The notes under the pieces: generated by a model
The model's input: the letters and a program-made list of their open reading frames with translations, nothing else
The model's database searches: none
What the model was told of the DNA's origin: nothing
DNA from: Escherichia phage fjerdesal
Sequence record: MN850605.1
Direction: 5' to 3' (one strand)
DNA length: 64,000 nt
Part shown: one piece after another, positions 1,435 through 46,857 of the stretch
Layout: each line of letters opens with the position of its first letter
How positions within the stretch are numbered: the first letter of the stretch is position 1
Translations under genes and position numbers: made by a program

Positions 1435-3092
1435 AATATCTTAAGAGCCTCCTTAATTGGGGGCTTTTTAATTTTTATAAAATTTTATCGGTTGTCCCAA
1501 CCTCTGGGTCACCATCATATGTGAATAAAATATCTATCCTTCTTAACAACCTTCTTAATCTTACTCTCTATATAGTTATATAGTACTATATAGTATCTTA
1601 GTAACTATCTAGTGGTCTTAATAGCCCTCTGTATAGCCCTTCTAAATAGCCATCTAAACACTCTTCTAACAAGCCTTCTAAACAACCTATACAATCATCT
1701 TAACCATCTCTCTATATCCTCTTAGAAGCTCCTATACACCTCTTAATCTCTAGGTTAGCTATGTTACTCTCTATAGGTGTTCACTAGGTACTACTAAGCC
1801 TCTATATAGACTGTTTTAACAAACTTAACAGGAATATCTTCACAGACCTTATCTCACAAGGTCTAACACGGTACTAACAAGGTATCTTATAAGCCTGTTA
1901 TTACCTGTATTTTTAAAAGGCTGTATAGGTAATTATTCAGAATCTTAAAATTTTTATAAAATAGGGCTATCAAGTCATTTTTTAGGGTCTTTGAAGGAAC
2001 TGAAAAATATCTGATTAGGATGTATATCTGCTTGGTAGCCCTTAACAGCCCCTTAACACCCCCTTTGCAAAATTTTAAAATATCCTTAACAATCTCTTAA
2101 CAGTTCTCACATCTTCTTAACAACCCTTCAAAGGTCTTAACAGATTCTTAACAGAACTAACAAGGCTGTAACAGTTTTCTAACAAGTGCTGAATAGGCTT
2201 TACAGAATCTTAACAGATGACTAACAAGAGCTAACAAGTTAATTTTAAAGAGTTATTTTGTTAAGATAATTAACAAGTTCCTAACAAGTGTTTAATCTTT
2301 TTAACAAGCTATTAACATGGTCACTATCTCTTGGTCTATAGTTCCCTTTCCCTCTTAGTGATTCTTTAAACATACCTCTTAAAAGCTCTCTATAGCTCTT
2401 TATAAGCTCTTTTAAGTCTCTTCCTAGTAGTTACACCCCAACTATACAGAAAGCTTTTTATAGGGCTTTACAGGAGCTTTTAAGGCTATGTCAAAGGCTC
2501 TTACAAGGCTTTTACATGGTCTTAACAGAGATTTAACAAGGGGCTAACAAGTCTCTAACAAGTGCCTTAAAAGCATAACTATGTAGGGATTGTTAAGAAA
2601 TTGTTAAGAAAATGTTAAGGGGGCTAGCATTTACGTAACTTTTAAGCTACTTTATATCCCCTATAACATACTTTTAAGACACTAACAAGCCCTTTTTAGA
2701 TATTCACAAGATAGCTAACGAGATGATAAAGCTTACACCCTTATAAGATTCTTTTAAGGCTGTAGGAAGCTTTATAAAGAGCTTTTAAGGGTGAGTTAAT
2801 GCAATCCCTTAAGTTAGGTTGATAAGGCTGTTATAGAGCTTTATAGAGCGTTTAAACGGTTGCCCTTCCCTTTCGGGTTATGGGCTTTTATTTAAGTTGA
2901 TTTGATAAGAGATTATAGAGTAGACTATAGAGTTATTGCTTTTAAGGTCTGGTAAGATTCTATCGAATCAGTAGGGTAGATTCTGGAAAGGAAAGGAAAG
3001 GGATTGTATAGAGGTTATTACATAGACGTAAAAAAGCCCCTATGAGAAGGAGCTTTGCAGGTATCTGGGGCTATTTAGCCCCGTTGCGTCGA
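1435..3092. repeat. 1.65 kb ORF-free region densely packed with short YTAACAR motifs (CTTAACAA, CTAACAAG, TGTTAAG) in both orientations; G-poor top strand
   Basis: no ORF of 60 aa or more on either strand; motif recurrence read directly; lies between convergent gene ends. Confidence 0.6.
1447..1469 (+). terminator. hairpin (GCCTCC-TTAATT-GGGGGC) followed by T5
   Basis: seen in sequence directly after the stop at 1434. Confidence 0.45.
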
Positions 3093-3341
3093 TTAGTTGT
3101 AACCTTGTTTATTGTAGTACAGTGAGATAATCAAGTCACCCCAGTAATGATAGTGATGCTCGTCGTTTAATGCCTCTTTTACAGCGTCTTTCCAGAAGTC
3201 ATCAGTAGGGTTATAATCTGGGATAACTTGCTTGATAACTGTCTTCACTAATGAAAAGCATTCATCAGTTCCACCGATATCAAATTTAACGTCCAGAGTA
3301 TAACAGCCATAAGCATTGACAGTTGCGCGGATAGTTGCCAT
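3093..3341 (-). CDS. hypothetical early protein
   Basis: ORF; start immediately follows a conserved intercistronic module with SD AGGAGA. Confidence 0.5.
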   Translation of the reverse strand: MATIRATVNAYGCYTLDVKFDIGGTDECFSLVKTVIKQVIPDYNPTDDFWKDAVKEALNDEHHYHYWGDLIISLYYNKQGYN

Positions 3342-3418
3342 TTTTTGAATCTCCTAGTTTAAGGACTTTACTTAGTGGGGAAGGTCATTCCCTCCCCGTT
3401 GATTAGTAATTTACTGCA
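3342..3418 (-). promoter_or_regulatory. conserved intercistronic module, variant A (stop codon - GGGGAAGG/CCTTCCCC hairpin - CCACTAAAT - AGGAGA - ATG)
   Basis: near-identical copies at 4269, 4831, 6054, 6925, 8451. Confidence 0.55.
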
Positions 3419-3674
3419 TGTTGGCGTATGTTGCAAGCCTTTTTTCGTTGTATTTTGTCAGAATCTCACAAGATAAAACATCATATTTTGTAACCGCTTT
3501 GCCTTTGTCGAGGTCAAAGAATCCGAACGCTTTACCATCTTTGAATCCGACAACTTCGTAAGATTCTTTGATGATTTCACCATTGAACAAATCACTTTCG
3601 ATACGGTGAAATAATGCTACATCTTCTTTGTCGGTTGCAATTTGTAAAAGTGTGGTTAATTCTACGTTTTCCAT
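3411..3674 (-). CDS. hypothetical early protein
   Basis: ORF; stop codon lies inside the conserved module. Confidence 0.5.
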   Translation of the reverse strand: MENVELTTLLQIATDKEDVALFHRIESDLFNGEIIKESYEVVGFKDGKAFGFFDLDKGKAVTKYDVLSCEILTKYNEKRLATYANMQ

Positions 3675-3745
3675 CTTGATGCCCCTAGTTTAAGGATTTT
3701 ATTGAGTGGGGGAGGTCATCCCCCGTTAATGAGTAATTTACAGAT
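3675..3745 (-). promoter_or_regulatory. conserved intercistronic module, degenerate variant A
   Basis: ctagtttaaggatttt...ggggaggtcatcccccgttaatgagtaatttac. Confidence 0.45.
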
Positions 3746-4268
3746 TTTTGATTGTCTCGTCAATGTCTTTTTCAATAGCTTTTAAAGTTTTTTCTAAGTT
3801 CTTGATATTGAAAGATAAACCCTCTCCCAATGTTTTGCTGTAACCACTAGGGCGCAAGTCATGCAGTTCGATTTCTTCCACTTCGAAGAGACTAACCAAC
3901 TCACCGCTTACACTGTAAGCCATTGAAACAGTATTTACAGGGGCTTTATAGAACTTGTTTAAGGACTTGATAGAACGCTCATAAGCCATTTTATAACCGT
4001 TTAAAAGGTCTTTAACGTGGTTGCGAACGTTTTTACACTCATCTAAGTAAATCCCTAAGAATAGCGGTAATAACTCTGCTACAGCTTGCATAAAGTGAGA
4101 GACTACAACGGTTGCAACATTACGACGATGTACATAATAAGCCCCATTTTCTGATTTAGTGATGGTTGCAAAGTGTACCCCATTGCAGCGAAATTCGTAG
4201 GTATCTTTAACAGGCTTAGCCATTACAGCATTTGAACGAATGTAGTTGATAGCTTGAAATTTGTTCAT
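3738..4268 (-). CDS. hypothetical early protein
   Basis: ORF 3738-4313 trimmed to ATG at 4268 (MNKFQ...) which directly follows the conserved module and SD. Confidence 0.5.
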   Translation of the reverse strand: MNKFQAINYIRSNAVMAKPVKDTYEFRCNGVHFATITKSENGAYYVHRRNVATVVVSHFMQAVAELLPLFLGIYLDECKNVRNHVKDLLNGYKMAYERSIKSLNKFYKAPVNTVSMAYSVSGELVSLFEVEEIELHDLRPSGYSKTLGEGLSFNIKNLEKTLKAIEKDIDETIKNL

Positions 4269-4345
4269 TTTTGAATCTCCTAGTTTAAGGACTTTATTTA
4301 GTGGGGAGGTCATTACCTCCCGTTGATTAGTAATTTACTTGTTTT
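4269..4345 (-). promoter_or_regulatory. conserved intercistronic module, variant A
   Basis: catttttgaatctcctagtttaaggactttatttagtggggaggtcattacctcccgttgattagtaatttac. Confidence 0.55.
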
Positions 4346-4488
4346 GATATCTGATTGCAAGCAATTTTTTAAGTTTATCTATAAAGAATCTTTTAAGTTA
4401 ATCCCTTTTAGATAAACCCCCTCGAACAAATCTACCAATGTCAAGGGGCGTTGTCAATACTTTTTGAAAGTTTTTTGTAAGTTATTGA

Positions 4489-4830
4489 TTAACTGATGAA
4501 TATTTTTTCAGGTTTTACATAGCTGATACGCTGACTTTTTAGCAGGTCATCCCAGATTAACGCGGCGATATGGGCATAACCGGATTCACGTAAAAGCTTC
4601 ATTGTTTTACTTCTCGTTTCAAAACGGCTTGCGTAGTACTCACTATTTAAAACCGTTTTATTCCCTTCGTTATCTACATGGATAATCTGCATCACTTGAA
4701 AGGGGCTTGTGTCCTCGCCTTTGTTCCACTGTTCAAAGTATTTTAGGCACTGCATAGGTGACATCTTATCACTTACTTGAGTTGACCAAGATGAATTTTC
4801 TTTATCGGTAATTACGGTTACATAAGCCAT
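4489..4830 (-). CDS. hypothetical early protein
   Basis: ORF preceded by module variant A. Confidence 0.5.
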   Translation of the reverse strand: MAYVTVITDKENSSWSTQVSDKMSPMQCLKYFEQWNKGEDTSPFQVMQIIHVDNEGNKTVLNSEYYASRFETRSKTMKLLRESGYAHIAALIWDDLLKSQRISYVKPEKIFIS

Positions 4831-4910
4831 TTTTGAATCTCCTAGTTTAAGGATTGTACTTAGTGGGGAAGGTCATTCCCTCCCCGTTGATTGACAATTT
4901 ACAGATTTTT
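4831..4910 (-). promoter_or_regulatory. conserved intercistronic module, variant A
   Basis: sequence identity to the other variant A copies. Confidence 0.55.
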
Positions 4911-4921
4911 ATCAGGCTTGT

Positions 4922-5155
4922 CTAGTCTTTTTCAATGATAATTTCATACTGACCATCTACGCTGTCAAAATAGATACCGTCTTCATCTTCTGTCTTAAAG
5001 TAACATTGTATATCATCACTAGCGGGATAGTCTTGTCTTGCTATCTGACAGACCTGAACAGCATTTTCTTTACTTCCTGTAAACTCCTCAAGCCCTTTAA
5101 AATCACATGAATGACCATTACAAATAGAAAGGATAAGATAAACGGTTGTAAGCAT
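4922..5155 (-). CDS. hypothetical small protein with hydrophobic N-terminus (possible signal peptide)
   Basis: MLTTVYLILSICNG...; preceded by a hairpin rather than the standard module. Confidence 0.4.
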   Translation of the reverse strand: MLTTVYLILSICNGHSCDFKGLEEFTGSKENAVQVCQIARQDYPASDDIQCYFKTEDEDGIYFDSVDGQYEIIIEKD

Positions 5156-5172
5156 GATTTAAGCCTCTTAAA

Positions 5173-5189
5173 AGCCCCTGTGAGGGGCT
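5173..5189 (-). terminator. hairpin AGCCCC-TGTGA-GGGGCT followed by T-run on the minus strand
   Basis: seen in sequence after the stop of 5222-5764. Confidence 0.5.
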
Positions 5190-5221
5190 AATCAGTGTTT
5201 ATAAGGTGATTGCATAGGTTT

Positions 5222-5764
5222 TTAGAAAAAGCTCTTTAAATCTCTCTCTGTGATGTTTCCCGCTAGTGTATCCATGATGTCACAAAAAACCTGAATACTA
5301 TCCGACTGTTGAATACTTTTAGCAAGAAGCTCCAGAGACTCATCAAGATAATTTAAATTTGGGTTATCCAATGAAGGAAGACAAAAAGGCGAAAACATCG
5401 CATTAAACTCGGTTACGTAAACCTTTTTAATCCAATTTAAATCGAAGTATTCTGTAAAACTTGCTACGCCAGACATATTATCACAAGAATAATCATCATT
5501 CAGGTCATCCTCTGGGATATCAAGTTCTAAGATAACAATATTTTGGGTTTTCATCTGGAAAGCGGCCGTAATAGTGGCATTACCTAACGCTTGCTGGATG
5601 CCTTCGGCTGTTATCTCTTCCTCATCGTCGCCATAGATTTTATTTTCTGGATACACGTAAAAATTGCCGTCCATGTCCGAACAATTCCATGCACCTGATG
5701 GCTTGTCACCGTTATTAATCAGGTTGAGGAAATTTTCTTGAGTAGTACCGTGAAAGCATTTCAT
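5222..5764 (-). CDS. hypothetical acidic early protein
   Basis: ORF; D/E-rich. Confidence 0.5.
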   Translation of the reverse strand: MKCFHGTTQENFLNLINNGDKPSGAWNCSDMDGNFYVYPENKIYGDDEEEITAEGIQQALGNATITAAFQMKTQNIVILELDIPEDDLNDDYSCDNMSGVASFTEYFDLNWIKKVYVTEFNAMFSPFCLPSLDNPNLNYLDESLELLAKSIQQSDSIQVFCDIMDTLAGNITERDLKSFF

Positions 5765-5849
5765 TTTTGAATCTCCAGTTTAGGATTTAGTGGTAAAGCT
5801 CTTTATCTGGGGCTTACTTTATCGAACTATAAGCCCCTTGTAAAGTACT
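5765..5849 (-). promoter_or_regulatory. conserved intercistronic module, variant B (hairpin GGGGCTTA...TAAGCCCC - CTTTACCACTAAATCC - GGAGA - ATG)
   Basis: copies at 6581, 7635, 7999. Confidence 0.55.
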
Positions 5850-6053
5850 TTATTTGTTATTTTTTACTACTTTTAAAACCGCACGATAGCCTAAGCAATA
5901 GGAATCACCGAAGAGCGACCGACCCATGAAGGAGTCCTCTGTAATATCTTTCGCCGTGACGGTTTTTTCTACGCCGTGAAAGAGAACTACATCACCGACT
6001 TTAATATCTTTGATGTGTGTAGTTTCAATGGTTAAACCGTTAATAATAGCCAT
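5850..6053 (-). CDS. hypothetical early protein
   Basis: ORF preceded by module. Confidence 0.45.
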   Translation of the reverse strand: MAIINGLTIETTHIKDIKVGDVVLFHGVEKTVTAKDITEDSFMGRSLFGDSYCLGYRAVLKVVKNNK

Positions 6054-6128
6054 TTTTGAATCTCCAGTTTAGGACTTTATTTAGTGGGGAAGGTCATTCC
6101 CGCCCCGTTGATGTGTAATTTAATCTAT
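6054..6128 (-). promoter_or_regulatory. conserved intercistronic module, variant A
   Basis: sequence identity to other variant A copies. Confidence 0.55.
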
Positions 6129-6160
6129 CTGAAAACCAATGTCAACAATTTTTTTTTTTT

Positions 6161-6580
6161 TTAGAGTTCTGCATAAATTGCATCACAGATACCACGAAAA
6201 TCATGATTTGTCAAATTACGTTGTAACCAAGTGGCGAAAAAGTCAGCGATTGCAAAGTTAGCGTCATACTCGACAGATAGCCACACTTTAACAGCAAACC
6301 GAAACATTTTCAAATCAAGCTCTTTATTCATTACCTTAGATTTGCCTAACATGTCGGACATTTCATATTGTGCACCGTCTAGCGTGATACCTGCTGCAAC
6401 GTCAGCCAATGAGTTTTTTACGTTTTCAACGTCTAAGATAACGCTTTGAATCTTCCCAATAATGTTGTGCAATGTTTCGTCCGGTGCTGATGACGTAATA
6501 ACATTAATCCGGTTAACGGTCAAACGTGCTTTTAAGATTGATAACTCGCGATTATTAATAGCCATTTTTAAGTTCTCCAA
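6161..6580 (-). CDS. hypothetical early protein (N-terminus MENLKMAI shared with 7726-7998)
   Basis: ORF; first 8 codons are part of the repeated module. Confidence 0.5.
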   Translation of the reverse strand: MENLKMAINNRELSILKARLTVNRINVITSSAPDETLHNIIGKIQSVILDVENVKNSLADVAAGITLDGAQYEMSDMLGKSKVMNKELDLKMFRFAVKVWLSVEYDANFAIADFFATWLQRNLTNHDFRGICDAIYAEL

Positions 6581-6651
6581 TTTAGGATTTAGTGGTAAAG
6601 CTCTTTATCTGGGGCTTACTTTATCGAACTATAAGCCCCTTGTAAAGTACT
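6581..6651 (-). promoter_or_regulatory. conserved intercistronic module, variant B
   Basis: near-identical to 7999-8069. Confidence 0.55.
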
Positions 6652-6924
6652 TTATACTAAATGCAGCTTTTTACCTTTTACTATGATGTAACTCGATGCG
6701 CTATTGCTTTGCACATCCTGATAAATTCTGCGCAAACGGCCTTCGTAGTATACTTTCCAACTGGTTGGAATCTTTTTCCCGTATCCTGTAGCAGTTTTTT
6801 GTAGTCCTGCAAGTTGCCAATCTAAGATATGTTGTTCGGCTTGTAAATCCTCGAAGTGCATTACACCGTTCACATAGTGACGAAGGGTTACGTTTAAGGT
6901 GCGACCGTTGTTAGTAGTATACAT
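6652..6924 (-). CDS. hypothetical early protein
   Basis: ORF preceded by module variant A. Confidence 0.45.
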   Translation of the reverse strand: MYTTNNGRTLNVTLRHYVNGVMHFEDLQAEQHILDWQLAGLQKTATGYGKKIPTSWKVYYEGRLRRIYQDVQSNSASSYIIVKGKKLHLV

Positions 6925-7000
6925 TTTGAATCTCCTAGTTTAAGGACTTTGTTTAGTGGGGAGGTCATTACCTCCCGTTGATTAGTAATTTACTTGTTTT
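6925..7000 (-). promoter_or_regulatory. conserved intercistronic module, variant A
   Basis: sequence identity to other variant A copies. Confidence 0.55.
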
Positions 7001-7011
7001 AAAAACCAAAA

Positions 7012-7344
7012 TCAAGAGAAATTTTTTCGTTTGCTCAATTCTTGAACAATTACAGCGTAGTAGTCTTTTAAGTCACTGACATTTAAAGCATTTATCAGAG
7101 AATTATAATCATCGACTAACTGAAAATCATCTTTGAAAATGTCGCTGATTTGATAAGTTTTTGATTGAAATCTGAAGCTCATTTCTAACCGTTTTATTTG
7201 TTCATCACTTAAACGCTCCAGAAAGCTCATTACAAGGCTATTATTGACCTGTTGCGTGATTGCCTTATTTGCTAGATTATAGGCTTTATATGCCTTATAT
7301 AGCGCGAAAATGGCAATGATTGCAGTGATACCAGTCATTAACAT
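7012..7344 (-). CDS. hypothetical membrane protein (N-terminal transmembrane helix)
   Basis: MLMTGITAIIAIFALYKAY... Confidence 0.45.
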   Translation of the reverse strand: MLMTGITAIIAIFALYKAYKAYNLANKAITQQVNNSLVMSFLERLSDEQIKRLEMSFRFQSKTYQISDIFKDDFQLVDDYNSLINALNVSDLKDYYAVIVQELSKRKNFS

Positions 7345-7634
7345 GGTGTTTCCTCTTTACGTGATACTTTGCCATTTACAGTTATCTCATAAGAATCTAG
7401 TAAGTCACTTTTAGATTTTACTGGACTTTTAAAAGTATCATCATAAATATTTACTTGCAATACAGGTTTTTTATACTCCCTGCAACTATTCCATAAACAA
7501 ATCACTACACGACGGCCTTTTATTTTACCGTGCAACCATTCCATAACATCATGATTATTTCTTGATGTCTCGATAAAATCAATTTTGTTGAGTAACTTGC
7601 TTAGATTTTCACGAACTTTATTGGATAATTTCAT
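7338..7634 (-). CDS. hypothetical early protein
   Basis: ORF preceded by module. Confidence 0.45.
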   Translation of the reverse strand: MKLSNKVRENLSKLLNKIDFIETSRNNHDVMEWLHGKIKGRRVVICLWNSCREYKKPVLQVNIYDDTFKSPVKSKSDLLDSYEITVNGKVSRKEETPC

Positions 7635-7725
7635 TTTTGAGTCTCCTAGTTTAAGGGTTAATTTGATAAAGCTCTTTATCTGGGGCTTAAGATATCAACT
7701 TTTAAGCCCCTTGTAAAGTACTTTA
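7635..7725 (-). promoter_or_regulatory. conserved intercistronic module, variant B-like
   Basis: hairpin GGGGCTTAAGATATCAACTTTTAAGCCCC plus conserved leader. Confidence 0.5.
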
Positions 7726-7998
7726 TCAGATTAAATTGCCAGTTAATGATAAGTGCATTTTGTAACCTTGTTTAGTGAATACGTTCACTTTACCGAGTGT
7801 TTTTACACCTTTAAAAAGGTTATTTGAACTGCGTTTTAAGGTTAAATGTTTATCAGCCTTCACGCCCCACCTTACATTAGATTGTTTTCCGTTGTCAACC
7901 ACTTTCCCGCATAACTTTTTAGCCATAACGCGAGCGTCATCACGAGTTTTTGCAGCAATTACAACGTTTTTGATAATAGCCATTTTTAAGTTCTCCAA
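7726..7998 (-). CDS. hypothetical basic early protein (N-terminus MENLKMAI shared with 6161-6580)
   Basis: ORF preceded by module variant B. Confidence 0.45.
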   Translation of the reverse strand: MENLKMAIIKNVVIAAKTRDDARVMAKKLCGKVVDNGKQSNVRWGVKADKHLTLKRSSNNLFKGVKTLGKVNVFTKQGYKMHLSLTGNLI

Positions 7999-8069
7999 TT
8001 TAGGATTTAGTGGTAAAGCTCTTTATCTGGGGCTTACTTTATCGAACTATAAGCCCCTTGTAAAGTACT
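7999..8069 (-). promoter_or_regulatory. conserved intercistronic module, variant B
   Basis: near-identical to 6581-6651. Confidence 0.55.
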
Positions 8070-8450
8070 TTATTTAATTTTGAAGATAGTTACGTAACCA
8101 TCACTACCGATTATTTGAGACACTCCAGCTTTTTCTACTTGATAGCCCATATTTTCAAGATGATAAACAGCATCATCATAACCATATGCGCCACCCTGAT
8201 AACGTCTCTTATCGCATTTTATCAGGTTTTTACCACGTCCCGCAAGTGCATGCAAAATGGCTTTTTCACTTGAAAGAGTACCATCTAGCATTGTCGCCGT
8301 GTAATGGTTGATTTTATTCCCGTTAATATCATACTTGAAATTGAACGAGTGAACAACAATAACGTTACCTTTAAAATTCTCATCAAGTGACTTCTCCAGT
8401 ACGCTACGAAAGTTGTCTTTGTTGATGAATTTAGGTGCACGATATTTCAT
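8070..8450 (-). CDS. hypothetical early protein (first gene of the leftward early cluster)
   Basis: ORF preceded by module variant A carrying a poly-C tract. Confidence 0.5.
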   Translation of the reverse strand: MKYRAPKFINKDNFRSVLEKSLDENFKGNVIVVHSFNFKYDINGNKINHYTATMLDGTLSSEKAILHALAGRGKNLIKCDKRRYQGGAYGYDDAVYHLENMGYQVEKAGVSQIIGSDGYVTIFKIK

Positions 8451-8520
8451 TTTTGAATCTCCTAGTTTAAGGACTTTAATTTTTGGGGTCCGGCATTTCC
8501 CCCCCCCCCCCGTTGATGCA
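8451..8520 (-). promoter_or_regulatory. conserved module variant A in which the hairpin is replaced by a 13-nt homopolymeric C tract (8499-8511)
   Basis: seen in sequence. Confidence 0.5.
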
Positions 8521-8727
8521 AATACTAGATAACCCCGTTCAAAGAGTCAAGAAAATTTTAAAAATATTTTTGGGAAAACTGTAATGAAACGTGCGCACAC
8601 GACTACCACAAAACAGAACACAAATCAAGAATTATTTTTCAATCCGCTACAAATTTTTCTCTTGACTTTTGGGGAGAGGGGGAGTAAGAGGGGGAGAGGG
8701 GTTGGTCTGGCTCTCTATAAAAACCTA

Positions 8728-8905
8728 CCTGCACAATTCTAAAATGATTTTTCTTGCCCGACCTGAGCGGGGTCTGCACGTTTTGAAAATGAAAAAGCTC
8801 TTTGGAGATTACCTGCACAGTTTGAAAATGAATTTTTCTCTTTGGAGTTCAAAATACTCTCTACAGATTTCTCTATAGAGATATACCTGCACAATTCTGA
8901 AATGA
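8728..8905. repeat. four direct repeats of about 20 bp (CCTGCACARTTYTRAAATGA) at 8728, 8774, 8812 and 8886, plus a perfect 12-bp palindrome TCTCTATAGAGA (8870-8881)
   Basis: seen in sequence; the region has only a low-complexity 69-aa ORF. Confidence 0.55.
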
Positions 8906-8978
8906 AAAAGCCCTCCTTACCTGAAAAATTTACCAGATAAGAAAGGCTTAGTCTATTGTGAATATCCTACGAAGTTTC

Positions 8979-9764
8979 TTAGTTCTTTGCGGCTAAGAAG
9001 GTAACTTCTGGCGAAGAGAAAACTGTCTCGATATCCTCATCAGTTCTTGCATAGATGTAAGTATCTGCATCACTGCCAAATGTTACTGCAATCCTGTGAT
9101 TGCTCTTCGACAGGTGGGTAACTAGAGCGTTACTTAGAGACATCTTTTCAACCGGAGGGTTACTTTGATGTATCTTACCTTTTCTTCGTCTGAAGAGGGT
9201 AACTGCATTATCCGTGAACACAACTACACCTGCGAAGTATTCTGGTTCACAGTAGTTCTTCCAACCTGAGCGTAACTTGTGGTACATCTCTCCTTCATAG
9301 ACATATAGATAAACATCTACGCTCTTCATTACCTGATTGATGATAACTGTGACGGCTTGAGGGTCCAACCCACCGATACCTGCACCAATCATAGGTAAAC
9401 CAACTTTCTTCAACTGATTAACTTCACAGTATCTGTTAAGTTGCTTCAAAGATGACTCTAAAGCACTGTATCGGGCATCTTTACCAGTCTTAAGCTGAGT
9501 GTAAAGGTTAGCTATACGACCTTGTTTTAAACGTGCTACGGAGAAATTACCTAGTAAATTTTCACAGGGTTTGTGGCCTATACCACCTGCATATAGATAA
9601 ACTTCTGTATCGGTCTCATATGCTTCTGGGTAAAGTTTAGAAATCTTGTCAGCGATACCTGCACCCATTAAATTCATACAGTTGCAACCGTGACCAATGA
9701 TGTCAAACTTACCTTTATCAAATGCAGCAAAGATGTCACCATTGATGATTTTTACAATACCCAT
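8979..9764 (-). CDS. macro-domain protein (ADP-ribose binding or processing) with C-terminal extension
   Basis: N-terminal pattern GDIF...DIIGHGCNCMNLMGAGIA and later PMIGAGIGG resemble macro-domain motifs (GDIT...IVNAAN...GGGV; A-G-I-Y-G). Confidence 0.5.
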   Translation of the reverse strand: MGIVKIINGDIFAAFDKGKFDIIGHGCNCMNLMGAGIADKISKLYPEAYETDTEVYLYAGGIGHKPCENLLGNFSVARLKQGRIANLYTQLKTGKDARYSALESSLKQLNRYCEVNQLKKVGLPMIGAGIGGLDPQAVTVIINQVMKSVDVYLYVYEGEMYHKLRSGWKNYCEPEYFAGVVVFTDNAVTLFRRRKGKIHQSNPPVEKMSLSNALVTHLSKSNHRIAVTFGSDADTYIYARTDEDIETVFSSPEVTFLAAKN

Positions 9765-46576: not shown

Positions 46577-46857
46577 AGGTAGGATAGGGTGGTGTATGGT
46601 TTGGTAAGGTTGTGTAAGGTAAGGTATGGGTAGTTAATCGGAGCTACATTAAAATTCGATTACATCACTTAAGAGTCTTCTAAGAGGATTTTTAAGTGAT
46701 GCTCTGTCGGGTTTGGTCGGGTTTGGTAGGGTTTGGTAGGGTGTGGCTCGGTATGGTGTGGTTTGGTGTGGTAAGGTATGGAAGGATGGCAGTAGCCTTA
46801 TAAAAAATCTGCCAAATAAGCTATAAAATCTGTTGACAAGTCAGGTGTTATAGCTTA
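46577..46857. repeat. composite repeat copy 2: GGT decamer array (46577-46632), conserved core (46623-46675), hairpin CATCACTTAA...TTAAGTGATG (46663-46701), second GGT array (46702-46795), then palindrome AAGCTATAA...TTATAGCTT around a TTGACA box
   Basis: seen in sequence. Confidence 0.6.

Follow-up and report, generated by a model that had tools for sequence, protein, structure and literature searches.

The stretch of Escherichia phage fjerdesal DNA that we analyzed (64,000 nt of record MN850605.1, one strand, hereafter the window) comes from a Felixounavirus: its segment 8000-10000 matched 245 phage records and shares 93-97% identity with phages heid, KhF2, wV8 and UAB_Phi87. The genome has a G+C content of 39%, and all the genes flanking the locus considered here lie on the minus strand. 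A macro-domain gene (8979-9764; Pfam PF01661, Macro, E 1.2e-7), rightly recognized as such in an earlier sequence-only reading of this DNA, is separated from a cluster of small genes by an intergenic gap of 528 bp (8451-8978), which the same reading had put at 460 bp. The first small gene of the cluster occupies 8070-8450, and the remaining ones follow leftward, so that the cluster adjoins the left physical end of the genome. Some 200 bp of this gap hold four direct repeats, R1 to R4, which constitute a non-coding cis element that seems to function as DNA; the array lies in the control region between the long macro-gene operon and the small cluster. In Felix O1, reverse-transcription polymerase chain reaction (RT-PCR) signals for open reading frame 13 (ORF13, the macro gene) and for cluster genes 16 and 20-22 are maximal 5 min post-infection (PMC3185647, Table 3), and hence the label “early” is reasonable for the cluster. 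The array had been described as lying upstream of that cluster, which holds in minus-strand orientation and not otherwise. Along the minus strand, the order is terminator hairpin, R1 to R4 with an inverted repeat within the R1-R2 spacer, C-rich tract, conserved block, UP-like element with promoter, and leader (Table 1).

Table 1. Features of the intergenic region, listed in minus-strand order. Identities given as fractions of 1, here and in the text, are mean pairwise values computed over 17 representative genomes.
Feature	Position	Strand	Description
Intrinsic terminator hairpin, macro-domain operon	8908..8949	-	17-pair stem, then tail TTTCATTTCA; identity 0.80
R1	8884..8911	-	CTTTT-TCATTT-CAGAAT-TGTGCA-GGTA; nhmmer E 7.9e-8; in all relatives; identity 0.89
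Imperfect inverted repeat	8857..8881		TCTNTAGAGA-N4-TCTGTAGAGA, in the R1-R2 spacer; 10-pair hairpin; includes palindrome 8870-8881
R2	8810..8836	-	AAAAT-TCATTT-TCAAAC-TGTGCA-GGTA; nhmmer E 2.6e-7; deleted in phiWec174 only
R3	8773..8798	-	CTTTT-TCATTT-TCAAAA-CGTGCA-GA; nhmmer E 6.2e-7; 13/18 box columns invariant (17 genomes)
R4	8725..8753	-	AAAAA-TCATTT-TAGAAT-TGTGCA-GGTAGG; nhmmer E 9.2e-7; 13/18 box columns invariant
Purine-rich mirror repeat (H-DNA type) with G-quadruplex motif	8671..8701	+	C-rich on the minus (mRNA-sense) strand
Candidate rightward promoter, P(+)	8662..8690	+	TTGACT-17 bp-TAAGAG; reads into the repeats
Conserved non-coding block	8585..8661		Between the divergent promoters; for 8585-8670, 49/86 columns invariant, identity 0.86
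Early promoter	8550-8522	-	Strong sigma-70 promoter, TTGACT-17-TAGTAT, with A+T-rich UP-like element at 8551-8574; promoter annotated in ASO1A
5' untranslated leader	8451..8521	-	G13 run at 8499-8511; Shine-Dalgarno AGGAG before ATG at 8450

On the minus strand the repeat unit reads G-M-W3-T-TCATTT-N6-TGTGCA-GGTA, with two constant boxes around a six-base centre that varies between the copies of one genome. An nhmmer profile built on 51 distinct copies from relatives finds exactly four matches in the window, each of them on the minus strand (8911-8884, 8835-8810, 8798-8773 and 8752-8725; E 8e-8 to 9e-7); the fifth-ranked hit stands at E 1.7, and the box pattern with no mismatch allowed yields no further copy in the 64 kb. 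A phage promoter motif dispersed along the genome is ruled out by this uniqueness. The 20-mer by which the sequence-only reading had listed four copies is itself far beyond chance (0.09 matches expected in shuffles): its copies at 8728 and 8886 are exact and that at 8812 carries one mismatch, whereas the one at 8774 is degenerate, with four mismatches, and nonetheless keeps both boxes as TCATTT-N6-CGTGCA on the minus strand (one mismatch). Successive repeats from R1 to R4 start 74, 39 and 45 bp apart. The centres of TCATTT and TGTGCA are separated by 12 bp, about one helical turn, and a 5-bp A-tract or T-tract precedes each site, in the order T, A, T, A. There is no dyad symmetry in the sites, the profile matrix being asymmetric. 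The 3' arm of the terminator of the macro-domain operon (GGTAAGGAGGGC) and its T-tail double as the start of R1, which adds to the unusual form of an element made of two-box, 18-bp sites with 37-77-bp spacing and alternating A/T tracts.

An alignment of the intergenic region is possible for Felixounavirus, Mooglevirus (Moogle, Sf13) and Suspvirus, and the four copies, their order and their 73-77/39-41/45 bp spacing are kept in all three genera. When the comparison is extended to the Erwinia phages of Kolesnikvirus, the repeat stretch (~8730-8832) is the sole part that still aligns; these phages have three to four copies set 37-39 bp apart, with four units at 37/37/39 bp in Erwinia phage MM7. 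In phiWec174 one unit (R2) has been lost. Conservation in related phages, which the sequence-only reading had proposed as a check, is thus borne out across four phage genera, and the hosts of these phages span at least four genera as well. The boxes of R1, R3 and R4 have identities of 0.89-0.92, and those of R2 score 0.79 because of the deletion in phiWec174; for comparison, the R3-R4 spacer stands at 0.57, flanking coding DNA at 0.60-0.67 and the early-promoter spacer at 0.53, and the -35 and -10 hexamers of the early promoter, which serve as an internal control, at 0.95 and 0.91. We read these patterned identities as the mark of selection acting on the boxes. Among the intergenic parts measured, the array and the block at 8585-8670 are the two best conserved, and the array exceeds the surrounding genes. 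Every copy from a phage of E. coli, Salmonella or Citrobacter has GGT or GAT as the bases flanking TGTGCA, and every Erwinia-phage copy has TAG or TAA there, a concerted change that fits co-evolution with one binding partner.

A search for the two-copy pattern in 2.9 million viral contigs returned only Ounavirinae contigs of 84-91 kb. In collections of bacterial genomes and metagenomes all other pattern matches were plain tandem duplications with identical centres, and no comparable array was found in 185,579 bacterial species genomes. A host- or plasmid-derived element is ruled out, with no similarity in E. coli genomes or in PLSDB, as is a link to the macro gene, whose distant homologs (L169, L170) have no repeats downstream. 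We found no published description of the repeats, including in the genome papers of Felix O1, wV8, VpaE1 and UAB_Phi87; the Felix O1 paper lists other direct repeats, and it gives the replication origin, temporal gene control and DNA-entry direction as unknown for this group (PMC3185647). Felix O1 and its relatives are classic typing phages, widely used in biocontrol and therapy, and the array, being more conserved than the genes around it, reduces the task of mapping an origin or master control site to something concrete and small, namely eight hexamers. It is a genuine cis element, conserved among relatives and amenable to experiment.

Several other accounts of the locus can be set aside. 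The codon-phase test is negative for every gene that has been called over the repeats, that is, for the 69-aa ORF on the plus strand, which the sequence-only reading had correctly suspected of being non-coding, for “ORF14” of Felix O1 and gene 13 of wV8 on the minus strand, and for the genes annotated in Moogle and Sf13. Variable columns fall evenly on the three phases in the array (18/44, 16/45 and 17/45), as opposed to 15/36, 11/36 and 27/37 in the macro gene, with its expected excess at third positions; relatives differ in the array region by indels of 1 and 2 nt, and the limits of the ORFs vary from phage to phage. An RNA that is known or structured is ruled out in its turn: Rfam gives no family at threshold, neither covariation nor a conserved secondary structure is seen (consensus energy -6 kcal/mol), and the folding z-scores, -1.6 and +1.2, are not significant. 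Compared by eye, none of the consensus sequences for CRP, sigma-54, sigma-E, MarA/SoxS, TyrR, NtrC, LexA, Cra and the T4 MotA box fitted the repeats. Nor is the array a terminal repeat or packaging site, the actual terminal repeat being located at a distance of 6 kb: that of UAB_Phi87, 608 bp long and sequenced experimentally (PMC4837284, Fig. S1), falls at 2032-2616 of the window, and the Pr103Blw annotation places a 581-bp terminal repeat in the same position.

We consider it likely, with good though not complete confidence, that the repeats are a DNA-level array bound by a sequence-specific protein, because the hexamers lie one turn apart, A5 and T5 alternate, and the array is unique to this locus. 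The alternation points to a DNA rather than an RNA motif, given that A- and T-tracts are equivalent as DNA bends and not as RNA. The element falls within a known broad kind, the iteron-like arrays of phage control regions, and calls for no new category; in common with iteron origins, it has at least three clustered direct repeats of a conserved 17-22-bp site. This much of the earlier proposal of a multi-site, iteron-like cis element holds, in that the repeats are unique and conserved and that their boxes surround a variable centre; the palindrome and the purine tract that had been counted in with them are not conserved design. The companion suggestion of an operator heading the early operon fares worse, with the nearest site 176 bp from the -35 of the early promoter, no dyad symmetry and no repressor assigned.

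The reading that we rank first, at a probability of roughly 0.3, is that of an iteron-like protein-binding array within a transcription-linked replication origin, a function that we infer. A sequence-specific protein, probably encoded by the phage, would occupy the four sites and build a bent nucleoprotein complex, and this complex might in turn mark a replication origin, which is the least certain of these steps. Such an origin would be activated by transcription entering from the flanking promoters, the rightward P(+) and the divergent early promoter. Transcription from P(+) would pass the purine/G-rich tract and then the repeats, and its RNA could open the duplex or prime leading-strand synthesis for a T7-like replisome (family-A polymerase plus primase-helicase). 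We rank this reading first because conserved, probable promoters lead into the array, the RNA over it has distinct kinetics, the annotated replisome is of T7 type with no initiator recognized, and T4 oriE provides a precedent. In Felix O1, RT-PCR is positive for “ORF14”, which covers R2 to R4, with a peak at 25 min, and the flanking ORF13 and ORF16 peak at 5 min (PMC3185647); the “ORF14” assay is not strand-specific. Replication genes annotated in the ranges of the UAB_Phi87 and Pr103Blw records that we covered comprise DNA polymerase, primase/helicase, ligase and exonuclease, and no product named as an initiator occurs in the UAB_Phi87 features from 45001 or in those of Pr103Blw from 40000, neither genome being fully covered.

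In 24 genomes the TTGACT of P(+), the length of its 17-bp spacer and the TA of its second hexamer are invariant, and the spacer itself comes as two unrelated alleles, the second of which has an extended -10, TGG-TAGCCT. An equivalent with the same orientation, TTGACG-18-TATACT, occurs in Erwinia phage phiEa21-4. From the invariant hexamer, spacer length and TA, together with the Erwinia equivalent, a rightward promoter entering the repeats is probably a conserved feature. The purine tract beyond its -35 consists of two perfect 14-nt mirror arms, GGGGAGAGGGGGAG-TAA-GAGGGGGAGAGGGG, with T8685 interrupting the purines. It had been noted as a polypurine run at 8671-8702; the run exists, its true extent being 8671-8701, and the interruption and the mirror repeat had gone unmentioned. 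The tract reads GGGG-AGA-GGGGG-AGTAAGA-GGGGG-AGA-GGGG, a sequence of the type predicted to adopt H-DNA or G-quadruplex forms. Canonical G-quadruplex motifs (at least four G-runs of at least three, with loops of at most 7 nt) number two in the window, and any such motif was present in 6 of 100 simulated sequences. The tract is present in Felix O1, wV8, Moogle, Sf13 and SUSP1, and shorter in phiEa21-4.

Known replication origins offer several points of comparison. T4 oriE has direct repeats next to an early-type promoter for the host polymerase, at a local switch in transcription direction, and at T4 oriF and oriG initiation depends on an R-loop-forming transcript (PMC3016281). The array, which likewise belongs to a virulent myovirus, shares with oriE a cluster of direct repeats beside an early-type promoter and a location where transcription switches direction; the oriE repeats, however, are 12 nt long and evenly spaced, whereas here the sites are of 18-27 bp, two-boxed and 37-77 bp apart, the two have no sequence similarity, and no counterpart of RepEA/RepEB is recognized. 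Iteron origins such as those of lambda (ori), F, P1 and R6K have three to seven direct repeats, each of which is contacted in two consecutive major grooves, along with intrinsic bends, an adjacent A+T-rich stretch and activation by nearby transcription; classical iterons stand about two helical turns apart, in or beside the initiator gene. The present sites are spaced by 3.5-7 turns, with no initiator recognized, no DnaA boxes and no similarity to PLSDB plasmids; A+T-rich stretches (0.77-0.87) at 8541-8570 and 8631-8660 are not adjacent in the classical manner. Phage T7 has transcript-primed initiation with its own RNA polymerase and no protein-binding repeats, and both its primary origin and that of lactococcal phage c2 lie in a non-coding region near a genome end and need a promoter-driven non-coding transcript. 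What the locus has in common with T7 is the type of replisome (family-A polymerase plus primase-helicase) and a non-coding region near one end. In the ColE1 RNA II hybrid and at mitochondrial conserved sequence block II, a G-rich non-template tract past the promoter stabilizes the priming RNA-DNA hybrid; here, by contrast, the -10 of P(+) lies inside the tract.

A number of observations weigh against an origin. The dune/phiWec174 group has unrelated sequence in place of the purine tract, and because many close relatives lack or replace it, the tract cannot be essential and any R-loop-stabilizing role would be dispensable. Activity of P(+) in the window is uncertain, since its -10, TAAGAG, is without the critical final T. 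DnaA boxes are not enriched (one DnaA-like site with one mismatch, below the genome average), and the array contains no IHF or Fis consensus and no GATC. No initiator or other partner protein for the sites was recognized: in a Pfam scan covering a minority of the phage proteins, none of eight neighboring small proteins gave a match, and the sole recognized DNA-binding protein, a Cro/C1-type helix-turn-helix protein, is encoded far from the array. The 37-77 bp spacing exceeds that of classical iteron origins, and the sites do not all fall on one helix face. GC skew, which in this phage follows transcription, makes no turn at the array. A rival candidate for the origin is a second, far denser repeat field, of CTTAACA with a period of ~11 bp, within the 1.66 kb of non-coding DNA at the genome end. 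Even in T4 the link of the oriE repeats to origin activity is unproven (PMC3016281), and our literature search found no experiment mapping an origin in any of the Ounavirinae. Should the array nonetheless be an origin, it would serve as a minimal replicon in the engineering of these phages and as a decoy sequence that blocks them.

The same arrangement of signals could instead serve a regulatory boundary, which we regard as a tentative second choice: a phage or host protein on the four sites would control crossing between the two transcription units, for instance by blocking or licensing read-through of the terminator, by acting as a roadblock to P(+), or by looping to the divergent promoters so that the early cluster is turned off at middle times. 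The array sits exactly between the terminator and the two divergent promoters, and R1 overlaps the terminator tail; the late maximum of the array RNA relative to its neighbors (25 vs 5 min) suggests regulated transcription through the array; the C-rich, mRNA-sense tract by R4 would, from its sequence, suit Rho loading; and Felix O1 encodes no polymerase or sigma factor of its own, its gene timing being unknown (PMC3185647). These points are offset by the distance of the sites from the core of the early promoter (176-360 bp), by their lack of dyad symmetry, by the fact that the recognized Cro/C1-type helix-turn-helix protein belongs to a type that usually binds inverted repeats, and by the absence of the motif from every other promoter or terminator in the 64 kb, which argues that it is not the site of a general regulator. 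A boundary of this kind would show how early genes are timed in a phage that has neither polymerase nor sigma factor.

Promoter and hairpin could also delimit a gene. A non-coding RNA of ~210-250 nt, running rightward from P(+) to the hairpin, would act as a CsrB-like sponge, its four motifs (ACCUGCACA-N6-AAAUGA) titrating either a protein that binds RNA or a complementary RNA. The promoter-like P(+) and the strong hairpin bracket exactly the four repeats, which all have one orientation, the RT-PCR signal over the array (not strand-specific) is compatible with such a transcript, and related myoviruses such as PAK_P3 express abundant intergenic small RNAs (PMC4933390). We nevertheless hold this to be unlikely: the folding and Rfam results given above offer it no conserved structure, the hairpin lacks a U-tract in the plus direction, the alternation of A5 and T5 makes no sense for an RNA motif, the -10 of P(+) is poor in the window, and no GGA-type or other known RNA-protein motif is common to these copies and those of the Erwinia phages.

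Selection on the boxes is also what speaks against a recombination linker, a reading that we find improbable, in which the region would provide shared homology for the exchange of cassettes of early genes, and the repeats would be remnants of duplication that nothing binds. Its appeal lies in the neighborhood. The first gene past the early promoter comes in three unrelated alleles among relatives beside a conserved intergenic region, a variety that suggests cassette shuffling and makes the non-coding region the stable element of a mosaic neighborhood, and the early cluster is rich in repeated intergenic modules (DR_1 to DR_9 of wV8). The conservation is patterned, however, with invariant hexamers beside free spacers and a variable N6, and the array persists in the Erwinia phages though the surrounding sequence no longer aligns.

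Still less probable, in our estimate, is that the repeats are tandem weak promoters of sigma-70 type, read on the plus strand, each unit supplying a -10, (T/G)AAAAT, that overlaps AAATGA and drawing its -35 from the unit before it. Two units of phiEa21-4 match at 10/12 and 9/12 positions as TTGCCA-17-TAAAAT and TTGCCA-17-GAAAAT, and TAAAAT occurs within R4 of the window. In the E. coli and Salmonella phages, by inspection, the spacings of 39-75 bp mean that nothing resembling a -35 hexamer stands 17 bp away; TGCACA, the hexamer that is conserved best, would land in the promoter spacer; and the essential -11 A is a G in R1 of the window and in R1 and R2 of the Moogle type. Good scores as sigma-70-type promoters, on the strand that does not carry the genes, are obtained for the repeat units of phiEa21-4 (1225-1290) themselves and not for those of the E. 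coli and Salmonella phages.

A last comparison is with the injection stop signal (iss) of T5, an untranslated, repeat-rich region ~7.9% from the left end that bounds the pre-early block and is more conserved than the adjoining variable small early genes (bioRxiv 10.1101/866236). The array stands 6.7-6.9 kb (~7.7%) from the left end of a genome of ~88 kb, and it too consists of conserved untranslated repeats at the boundary of the leftmost ~8%, outdoing the adjacent genes. The T5 region, however, is part of a terminal repeat of 10 kb and is equipped with paired DnaA boxes, many palindromes and large inverted repeats, all of which are absent here. We know of no report of two-step DNA entry in Felix O1, and we think it very improbable that the array is a DNA-entry checkpoint of this kind. 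On that reading the left 7-8%, with its self-promoted small early genes, would enter first, and transfer would then halt at the purine tract, prone to structure, and at the repeats with their bound protein, until released by early proteins; two-step genome delivery would thereby extend to a second, unrelated phage group.

As to the remaining features of the gap, the terminator hairpin of the macro-domain operon is annotated in the wV8, KhF2 and ASO1A records, and on the plus strand the sequence has no T-run after it. The palindrome at 8870-8881, TCTCTATAGAGA, which the sequence-only reading had singled out, does exist, but wV8 and Felix O1 have TTCTGTAGAGAA in its place, and perfect palindromes of 12 bp number 21 in the window, where 18 would be expected; a designed site is ruled out by this chance frequency and lack of conservation. 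The hairpin potential of the larger inverted repeat is kept within Felixounavirus through G-U-type changes, and its sequence differs in Moogle-type phages. In the conserved block at 8585-8661, a frame-shifting indel between the window and Felix O1 argues against a gene. Within the block is a near-palindrome, small and GC-rich (GTGCGCAC), that differs in sequence from genus to genus. The C13 run of the leader (G13 on the mRNA strand) was seen in this phage only, its place in relatives being taken by a GGGGAGGG...CCTTCCCC hairpin; it could be prone to slippage or be an artefact of sequencing.

The purine tract seems to defeat sequencing or assembly. The records of phage Andreotti and of three IMG/VR contigs (handles L003, L151, L152 and L163) independently stop at the mirror repeat or within ~45 bp of it, and L152 runs directly into a Nextera adapter. 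The Andreotti record starts inside the array, lacks an equivalent of 4300-8700 of the window and carries an inverted artefact. Record ends in or beside the tract are assembly breaks and not genome ends, and the practical point is that a mirror-repeat/G-quadruplex tract beside the array breaks several public assemblies. In another IMG/VR contig (L157, 89,118 bp), which may be chimeric, the sequence past the equivalent of 8757 does not align with the window. The second G-quadruplex motif of the window lies on the plus strand at 46709-46741 (GGGTTTGGTCGGGTTTGGTAGGGTTTGGTAGGG) and is built on an 11-nt tandem unit.

Beyond the gap, the 1.66-kb non-coding region at 1435-3092, where two gene blocks converge, includes the terminal repeat (2032-2616) and holds dozens of CTTAACA(R) motifs, many of them spaced 11 or 31 bp; this repeat field is a candidate terminase or replication site. 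In the cluster at 3093-8450, repeated promoter/terminator modules stand between the genes, and two of the ORFs, 6161-6580 and 7726-7998, both have MENLKMAI as their N-terminus and have upstream DNA in common. On the other side of the array, the Pfam match of the macro protein covers residues 25-141 only, leaving a C-terminal extension of ~120 residues with no family match, and its distant homologs (L169, L170) align to residues 4-157 only.

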